DNA of 64,000 nt. It comes from Escherichia phage vB-EcoP-XT73. The position numbers and the translations under genes are program-made. The notes below the pieces were generated by a model. It saw only the letters and a list, made by a program, of their open reading frames with translations. It had not been told where the DNA came from and ran no database searches. The DNA lies in the sequence record OR757436.1; one strand, written 5' to 3'. Below, piece by piece: positions 16,574 to 17,158 of this stretch; within the stretch, counting starts at the first letter, position 1, and each line of letters starts with the position of its first letter.

Positions 16574-16718
16574 ATGTAGGGTTGACCTGCCTCTTTTAGA
16601 GAGTGCTCAAGGAAAGGCACTAGCCACTACGTTGGAGTGGTATCAGGACCAGTACACAGAATGTGCTGCTAATCACAATGGATTGTTAGAAGCTCTGAAA
16701 GAGCGTGGAGTAGAGTGA
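16458..16718 (+). CDS. o-spanin (Rz1-like) candidate, overlapping the 16223 gene
   Basis: MRKLNQFFIMSALVMTTSACSTSDSS looks like a signal peptide with a Cys near the cleavage region. It starts inside the upstream gene in a different frame and extends beyond it. The lipobox is atypical. Confidence 0.35.
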   Translation: MRKLNQFFIMSALVMTTSACSTSDSSRQSMPLPTNLKAECRVDLPLLESAQGKALATTLEWYQDQYTECAANHNGLLEALKERGVE

Positions 16719-17158
16719 TGGCTATTGTTTTCGAAGGTAAAGCCAATGTGTTCACAGTGGACGCTCAAACAGTAACTTGCACAGTAAACCTTGTAGGTGT
16801 AATGGGTGCAGGAGTAGCCAAGGAGTATAAAAGAAGATACCCTGAAGCTTTTGAAAGGTATAAGGTTGCTTGCGACTCTGGATTCCAGATCGGACAACTT
16901 CTTCTACAGAGGTTGAATGATGGGAGACTGGGATTGTGTTTTCCAACTAAGAAGCATTGGAGAAACGGTTCTGAGGTAGAGTGGATAGAGCAAGGCTTAC
17001 AAAAGCTATTACTTACCTACAAAGACAAGGGAATCACCTCTCTAGCCATAACACCTCTGGGTTGTAGCAATGGAGGACTAGATTACCAATCTCAGGTAAG
17101 ACCTTTAATGTTTAAATACCTAAATCAGATGGACATACCTGTCTATATCTGTTTGTAA
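16715..17158 (+). CDS. macro-domain protein (ADP-ribose binding/hydrolase fold)
   Basis: [22 protein letters not shown] and [13 protein letters not shown] resemble the two glycine-rich macro-domain motifs. Confidence 0.6.

Follow-up and report, generated by a model that had tools for sequence, protein, structure and literature searches.

The window analyzed here, a 64-kb stretch of DNA (64,000 nucleotides; sequence record OR757436.1), comes from Escherichia phage vB-EcoP-XT73, a phiEco32-like coliphage (Kuravirus, Gordonclarkvirinae). On its forward strand lies a small gene orthologous to phiEco32 gp37, which is annotated as "Appr-1-p processing enzyme family", with a spanin-like gene pair (gp39/gp38) on one side and the phage sigma factor gp36 on the other. 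Around this gene, a stretch of 4.1 kb finds counterparts in 98 phage records, with 93-99.5% identity for the best. The features referred to below are, in order of position:

15352-15360, + strand: exact TAATGTATA, the consensus of gp36-dependent middle/late promoters in phiEco32, with the gene-40 ortholog (15419) following after some 60 bp
16707-16710, + strand: GGAG, Shine-Dalgarno-like, 7 nt upstream of the ATG, read from the sequence
16718-17158, + strand: macrodomain gene, 146 aa plus stop (147 aa with the GTG extension to 16715), ortholog of phiEco32 gp37
16718-17180, + strand: presence/absence cassette of 463 bp (gene plus spacer), with repeats TGATGGC at 16716-16722 and 17179-17185
16784-16819, + strand: glycine-rich motif of loop 1, holding N25 (TaqDarG N22), A32 (K29) and V34 (V31)
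16940-16960, + strand: FPTKKHW segment, holding T78, the catalytic K79 (TaqDarG K80, TARG1 K84), H81 and W82 (TaqDarG W83)
17051-17086, + strand: motif of loop 2, diphosphate-binding, in which G116, S118, N119 and G120 correspond to TaqDarG G117, G119, N120 and G121

The first-pass annotation had described a macro-domain protein encoded at 16715-17158. Inspection of the open reading frame listing and its translation recovers this frame on the + strand with a GTG start and a 147-aa product as described, with one correction: translation probably begins with the ATG of 16718 rather than the GTG of 16715. We favor the ATG because every ortholog is 146 aa long and begins MAIVFEG, because this codon shares bases with the TGA that ends the preceding gene (TGATG), and because the GGAG lies 7 nt upstream of it. 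The overlap of start and stop further suggests that translation may be coupled to that of the upstream o-spanin-like gene. Residue numbers given here follow the 147-aa (GTG) numbering, so that numbering from the ATG is obtained by subtracting 1. Two short open reading frames on the opposite strand, at 16673-16897 and 16752-16946, are mechanical entries of the listing. Homology, a dN/dS of about 0.04 and a confidently predicted fold rule out that the open reading frame is an artefact or that the true gene runs on the other strand.

In phiEco32, the DNA polymerase, the nucleotide-metabolism genes and gp36 lie in one cluster of the middle class, and six gp36-dependent promoters with the consensus tAATGTAtA have been mapped, one of which (P40) lies upstream of gene 40 (PMC8948821). 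The gene-40 ortholog of the window, preceded by the exact promoter motif, heads an operon that includes the macrodomain gene. When one mismatch is allowed the motif occurs 19 times against 20.9 expected, which is no enrichment; only exact and correctly placed copies are meaningful. By analogy with phiEco32, this conserved arrangement would be consistent with middle expression of the macrodomain gene alongside the replication genes.

Profile searches bore out the proposed macrodomain well beyond what chance would give, with Pfam Macro (PF01661) matching residues 23-126 at E = 5e-9 and 36.6 bits, above the gathering cutoff of 22. DarG profiles matched as well, both NCBIfam antitoxin_DarG (NF048014, an equivalog; E = 3.9e-41) and PADLOC DarG (E = 4.1e-44, positions 6-142 of 329). 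Given that the NF048014 match covers only the macrodomain positions 6-144 of the 338 in the profile, its score of 141.4 bits falls below the curated cutoff of 250 that marks a full-length DarG2 antitoxin. Among sequences of known structure, the best match is the Mycobacterium tuberculosis DarG macrodomain (5M3I, E = 1e-26), followed by Thermosipho africanus DarTG (7OMU, E = 3e-25) and Thermus aquaticus DarG (5M31/5M3E, E = 4e-24), with human TARG1 at E = 0.2. The protein ends 2-3 residues past the macrodomain and lacks the C-terminal, DarT-binding domain of DarG.

An AlphaFold2 model built from 29 homologs reached a pLDDT of 96.1 and a pTM of 0.90 and shows the alpha/beta fold of a macrodomain, and the top Foldseek matches to it are all macrodomains (TM up to 0.93). 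The first of these is Taq DarG with ADP-ribose (TMq 0.93, rmsd 1.6 A, E = 6e-16), after which come T. africanus DarTG and Mtb DarG (E about 1e-15) and then TARG1 (E about 2e-9, 19% identity), which still precedes the remaining macrodomains; the DarG structures rank well above the viral and MacroD-like ones. Among macrodomains, profiles and predicted structure together assign the phage protein to the DarG2/TARG1 branch. Strictly speaking, it does not qualify as a DarG2 antitoxin: a full-length profile score, the C-terminal domain and a DarT neighbor were each tested for, and none of the three was found.

Closer inspection of the active site made use of the T. aquaticus DarG (TaqDarG) macrodomain, in which N8, L9, T20, N22, V31, Q34, T79, G117, G119, N120 and G121 form hydrogen bonds with ADP-ribose (Jankevicius et al. 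2016, PMC5179494). K80, equivalent to TARG1 K84, is catalytic, and the K80A mutant is inactive; mutation of N22 has the second strongest effect; W83, which is Ala in TARG1, is proposed to stack on the modified thymine; and both K29E and G119E impair the enzyme (PMC5179494). The chain numbering of 5M31 differs from that of the publication by an offset of 10, which we verified on 15 named residues. Both glycine-rich motifs quoted in the first-pass annotation are present in the phage protein, as loops 1 and 2. The HMMER alignment pairs TaqDarG N8 with N11, L9 with V12, T20 with T23, N22 with N25, K29 with A32, V31 with V34 and Q34 with E37 in the N-terminal part, and T79 with T78, K80 with K79, H82 with H81, W83 with W82, G117 with G116, G119 with S118, N120 with N119 and G121 with G120 in the remainder. 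Eight of the 11 residues that contact ADP-ribose are thus identical, the other three being replaced (L to V, Q to E and G to S). The catalytic lysine of the DarG/TARG1 type is present in its T-K motif (K79), as are the DarG-specific N25 and W82. Across the 29-sequence alignment, T23, N25, T78, K79, G116 and G120 are invariant and W82 is conserved in at least 90%. At two positions where TaqDarG mutants lost activity, K29 and G119, the phage protein differs by carrying Ala and Ser; among the 29 homologs the K29 equivalent is commonly Ala and the G119 equivalent commonly Ser, Gly or Ala, and the latter is Gly in phiEco32.

A close functional precedent is PhiKZ gp104, a chimallivirus macrodomain that was named AdfM in 2026; it removes DarT2-attached ADP-ribose from DNA and is needed on DarTG2 hosts, and its authors state that no macrodomain Adf had been reported previously (PMC13309987). 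The product described here resembles AdfM in being encoded by a phage as a DarG2-like macrodomain that stands alone and lacks a DarT-binding domain. It shares 41% identity (E = 3e-36) with SL2 gp246, a PhiKZ-type AdfM ortholog that carries N23 and K78, and the active-site pair N23/K78 of AdfM corresponds to N24/K78 here in the 146-aa numbering; the K29 equivalent of PhiKZ-type AdfM is likewise Ala. The two differ in length (162 aa in AdfM, 146 here), an insertion that precedes loop 2 in AdfM being absent here, and in setting, as the phage under study is a 77-kb podovirus without a phage nucleus and hence without nuclear import. Judged by sequence, the protein has every feature that could be checked for a factor of the AdfM kind with homology to the PhiKZ protein.

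To place the gene among cellular proteins we scanned 1.84 billion cluster representatives with HMMER, which returned 6,659 relatives at E ≤ 1e-3, including 61 at E ≤ 1e-30. Among 148 matches listed of the 6,659, 79 are longer than 260 aa, mostly with the macrodomain at the N-terminus as in DarG2, and 38 are 200 aa or shorter. The nearest cellular relatives are DarG2 antitoxins, at up to 53% identity. Even the best cellular matches of roughly 300 aa score below the NCBIfam DarG cutoff, their C-terminal halves diverging from the model; because this profile could not certify the long cellular relatives, we used adjacency to DarT as the criterion instead. The three closest long relatives examined (P0046, P0048 and P0049; 51-53% identity) are each directly followed by a gene of Pfam DarT (PF14487), a family described by Pfam as "ssDNA thymidine ADP-ribosyltransferase". 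We then considered the best 80 loci in GTDB, taking one genome per species, which span many phyla at 39-53% identity. A DarT gene is adjacent in 58 of the 80 by a seed profile made of Pfam-verified seeds only and in 71 after one iteration, and because DarT adjoins so many of these loci, the nearest cellular clade consists overwhelmingly of antitoxins from DarTG2 systems that modify thymine.

None of these 80 closest loci, drawn from species-representative genomes, is enterobacterial, and a blastn search (word size 11) with the gene as query gave no match in 5,426 complete E. coli genomes. The idea of a recent origin from E. coli was set aside, as neither result gives evidence for it and neither yielded a close E. 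coli darG relative.

Within the phage group the gene behaves as an accessory element. Its DNA is present in 43 records and that of the neighboring sigma-factor gene in 98; the gene is missing from over half of the records of related phages, and it is dispensable on common hosts. In phage NJ01 the cassette is precisely absent and the gp38-like gene directly abuts the sigma gene; in the alignment the gap is a clean 463 bp, flanked by the start context TGATGGC as a repeat. At this site KBNP1711 has two small open reading frames that are unrelated, and MN03 has the gene. Beyond this group, vB_EcoM_DE15, a member of the Chaseviridae, an unrelated coliphage family, holds an 81%-identical copy among its early genes, beside its SSB gene. 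A tblastn search of 50,697 phage records found 271 carriers, of which 43, from the Kuravirus group and one Chaseviridae phage, are at ≥ 80% identity, while the remaining 228 are below 60% and belong mainly to jumbo phages of Pseudomonas, Erwinia, Serratia and Salmonella. Where present, the gene is under strong purifying selection, with a dN/dS of 0.04 against phiEco32 and MN03 at a dS of about 0.47-0.49. Horizontal sharing combined with good conservation, in an accessory cassette of one gene, would be the pattern expected of a counter-defense gene.

In a bootstrapped neighbor-joining tree, the Kuravirus and Chaseviridae sequences form a clade in 93 of 100 replicates, and an exclusive clade with PhiKZ-type AdfM appears in only 1 of 100. 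This is suggestive, but no more than that, of a separate capture from the DarG2 pool, independent of the chimallivirus AdfM, as the distance-based tree uses 145 columns and one chimallivirus sequence and its deep nodes are weak with respect to the AdfM and DarG2 lineages.

Taken together, these observations argue that the gene encodes an orphan DarG2-type macrodomain acting as a DNA ADP-ribosyl glycohydrolase in phage counter-defense against DarTG2, that is, an AdfM-like anti-DarT factor, a reading to which we assign a probability of roughly 77%. The suggestion in the first-pass annotation that the product could reverse DarT-type defensive ADP-ribosylation is thereby supported by profile, structural-model, residue and genomic-association evidence. 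Under the proposed mechanism, DarT2 of a DarTG2-carrying E. coli would ADP-ribosylate thymines of the single-stranded phage DNA and block its replication, and the phage would make its enzyme from the middle operon, alongside the products of the replication genes. The two glycine-rich loops are predicted to bind the ADP-ribose while W82 stacks on the modified thymine, and K79, aided by N25, would cleave the bond between ribose and thymine, releasing ADP-ribose and restoring the DNA. Because the phage protein is without the DarT-binding C-terminal domain, its action is expected to be purely enzymatic, with no sequestration of the toxin. The TaqDarG macrodomain alone rescues DarT toxicity, and binding of DarT needs the rest of DarG (PMC5179494). 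Enteropathogenic (EPEC) E. coli is described as carrying an active DarTG (PMC7003065), and hosts relevant to an anti-DarTG role would therefore be available. We found no literature that links the Kuravirus group, phiEco32 or the BASEL Gordonclarkvirinae to DarTG.

We considered whether the enzyme might instead hydrolyze other adducts, or several of them, such as ADP-ribose on protein Glu/Asp, phosphate-linked ADP-ribose on nucleic-acid ends, or the RNA ADP-ribosylation of CmdTAC. TARG1, which sits in the same branch and shares the catalytic-lysine mechanism, removes thymine-linked ADP-ribose and also handles protein Glu/Asp and phosphate-linked nucleic-acid adducts (PMC8501950), other ADP-ribosylating defenses are described in E. 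coli (PMC11618068), and a cognate host DarTG2 was found neither among the 5,426 E. coli genomes by blastn nor in the 80 closest loci. However, the phage protein is far closer to the DarT-linked DarG2 (up to 53% identity, with DarT at 58-71 of 80 loci) than to TARG1, a eukaryotic enzyme of broader substrate range that is 19% identical, and it keeps the proposed thymine stacker W82 where TARG1 has Ala. We therefore regard this as unlikely, though it is the best placed of the alternatives.

A second alternative is the processing of soluble ADP-ribose species, whether as an ADP-ribose-1''-phosphate phosphatase, as an O-acetyl-ADP-ribose deacetylase or as a degrader of an NAD-derived immune signal. 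Database names point this way, among them PHROG 335, labelled "phosphatase" (E = 3e-32), and the GenBank annotations; such names, however, are generic legacy labels for any macrodomain. MacroD-type macrodomains carry an Asp after the GxG loop. This Asp is absent from the phage sequence, and the sole MacroD-type signal, from the NCBIfam "ADP-ribose-binding protein" model, is weak (E = 0.01, 15.7 bits against a cutoff of 246). Poa1p does occur among the fold matches, at E about 1e-7 and 17-20% identity and at E about 1 by sequence, compared to E about 1e-15 and 34-39% identity for DarG. Membership of the MacroD/YmdB/Poa1p type (Appr-1''-p phosphatase) is thus not indicated, the closest relatives in both sequence and structure being DarG, and the homologous AdfM acts on DNA (PMC13309987). 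Action on NAD-derived signals, which the first-pass annotation had raised in addition, drew no specific support from these results, and we judge the processing of soluble species to be quite improbable.

A further possibility is that the phage also encodes an ADP-ribosyltransferase for which this protein is the eraser; the two would then make up a writer/eraser or toxin-antitoxin pair through which the phage controls its own modification of host targets. Pairs of the ART-Macro and sirtuin-Macro kinds are known in phages (PMC9503650), and the window contains many uncharacterized small early open reading frames. A DarT profile run against all open reading frames of at least 50 aa in the 64-kb window found no DarT-like candidate (best E = 0.35), a Pfam scan of 20 other window proteins found no ADP-ribosyltransferase domain, the full annotation of the relative Bas91 lists no such enzyme, and the cassette is gained and lost alone as a single gene, all of which make this pairing very improbable; no second macrodomain was found in the window either. 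Some macrodomains only bind ADP-ribose (established knowledge; also PMC9503650), but a catalytically inert binder serving as reader or sponge is scarcely credible here, as the catalytic Lys and the Asn do not vary among homologs, purifying selection on the gene is strong, and close homologs are active enzymes (PMC13309987, PMC5179494).

Returning to the anti-DarT reading, comparison with characterized systems suggests that the phage protein most likely works like DarG2 and AdfM and reveals no new mechanism. With the DarG2 antitoxins of T. aquaticus, M. tuberculosis and EPEC (PDB 5M3E, 5M3I, 7OMU) it shares the macrodomain subfamily, the fold (TM 0.93) and the catalytic residues, whereas it consists of the N-terminal macrodomain only, with neither the C-terminal DarT-interacting domain nor an adjacent DarT. 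Anti-DarT strategies known earlier comprise AdfA, AdfB and the NADAR enzyme AdfN (PMC11481870, PMC11825919). AdfN, directed against DarTG1, is likewise a phage-borne orphan antitoxin domain that enzymatically erases DarT marks, but it has an unrelated NADAR fold, is specific for the guanine adducts of DarT1 and is inactive against DarTG2 (PMC11825919). T4 Tk.4, which is required on DarTG2-expressing E. coli, was independently named AdfM in a 2025 preprint that combined a transposon screen with a clean knockout on such a host (10.1101/2025.11.20.689424). It too is a stand-alone coliphage macrodomain under a generic label ("phosphatase / A1pp"), and both proteins match Pfam Macro; because their sequence similarity is only marginal (24% identity over 42 aa, E = 6e-4), Tk.4 probably belongs to another macrodomain lineage.

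Should the cassette function as proposed, the isolates able to replicate on DarTG2-carrying strains could be predicted from whether they carry it, as 43 of the 98 related records do. The range of macrodomain anti-DarT factors, so far nucleus-forming jumbo phages and T4, would then take in small podoviruses and Chaseviridae as well, repeated phage capture of the enzymatic half of toxin-antitoxin defense systems would gain support, and the renaming of many "Appr-1-p processing" and "phosphatase" annotations would be justified. Two further-reaching proposals are doubtful: that the enzyme acts more broadly than on the DarT2 thymine adduct, reaching other ADP-ribosylating defenses or toxins of E. 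coli that target RNA or protein, or that having or lacking the 463-bp cassette is a main determinant of which therapeutic Kuravirus isolates infect DarTG2-positive pathogenic E. coli. Were either true, the legacy "phosphatase" annotation would become a host-range marker. The added value of the main reading is modest, namely an accessory cassette recognized in a phage group used for therapy and a long-standing generic annotation corrected. According to the host fields of their records, Kuravirus-group phages are often isolated against avian-pathogenic, enteropathogenic and multidrug-resistant E. coli.

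Searches for relatives of the XT73 macrodomain gene recovered a copy in vB_EcoM_DE15, an unrelated 54-kb myovirus of the Chaseviridae (locus L092), where the gene lies at 3501-3941 in the early region and adjoins an SSB gene. The presence of this 81% identical copy in an unrelated phage indicates that the macrodomain gene has been exchanged horizontally between coliphage families. We also noted that the sister of the Kuravirus macrodomain clade in the neighbor-joining tree is P0024, a 148-aa metagenomic macrodomain from an 849 bp ENA contig. The N-terminal half of this protein resembles DarG of the Taq/Mtb type, with 56% identity to TaqDarG over 117 aa, and its C-terminal third carries a pattern nearly identical to that of the Kuravirus clade; judged from these two segments, P0024 looks like a mosaic. 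Two unusual fusions were seen among other relatives. P0068 (533 aa) is a DNA adenine methyltransferase with a DarG-like macrodomain fused at its C-terminus, and a single 492-aa ORF of a Phototrophicaceae MAG (L012, 2956-4431) combines a Macro match with a DarT match, resembling the fused T. africanus DarTG seen in structure 7OMU.

A second cassette-type replacement lies only several hundred bases away from the macrodomain gene: an 89-aa DUF3310 ORF (17822-18091; Pfam E = 9e-9) is positioned between the sigma-factor gene and a 5'-3' exonuclease gene, where phiEco32, MN03, Bas91 and KBNP1711 have two genes, one labelled "GTP-binding domain" and the other encoding a dNMP kinase. Directly 5' of the macrodomain gene, the middle operon holds two genes (16199-16718) that look like an overlapping spanin pair:

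16199-16573, Rz-like i-spanin, first member of the pair
from about 16458, second spanin-like ORF in another frame, N-terminus MRKLNQFFIMSALVMTTSAC

The MRKLNQFFIMSALVMTTSAC N-terminus resembles a lipoprotein signal, lipobox Cys included, and the stop of this second ORF overlaps the macrodomain start. Only its last 57 aa are annotated as gp38 in phiEco32, and that annotation may therefore be truncated. Bas91, a relative, has its holin and endolysin genes in another gene cluster, apart from the spanin-like pair.

The phiEco32 gp36-promoter element, TAATGTATA, occurs in five exact copies in the window, four of which lie directly upstream of genes and in the direction of transcription. Within the intergenic region 15260-15375, inverted near-copies flank the plus-strand element:

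9156, exact copy
15280 (-), exact copy
15352, exact copy
24625 (-), exact copy
39686 (-), exact copy
15271-15288 (-), inverted near-copy
15362-15370 (-), inverted near-copy

When one mismatch to TAATGTATA was allowed, we observed no excess over chance in the window (19 found versus 20.9 expected). Besides the gp36 ortholog, the early region encodes another sigma-like or DNA-binding regulator, a 137-aa protein (61429-61842) that matches Sigma70 region-4 / HTH (E = 4.5e-7). An 85-aa ORF at 19455-19712 gave a weak match to the WYL domain that narrowly missed the cutoff (E = 3e-4; 21.1 bits against 21.8); regulators of this type sense ligands and are frequently linked to defence systems. The early region additionally encodes a 129-aa protein with a SleB-type cell-wall hydrolase domain (55923-56312; Hydrolase_2, E = 2e-7).
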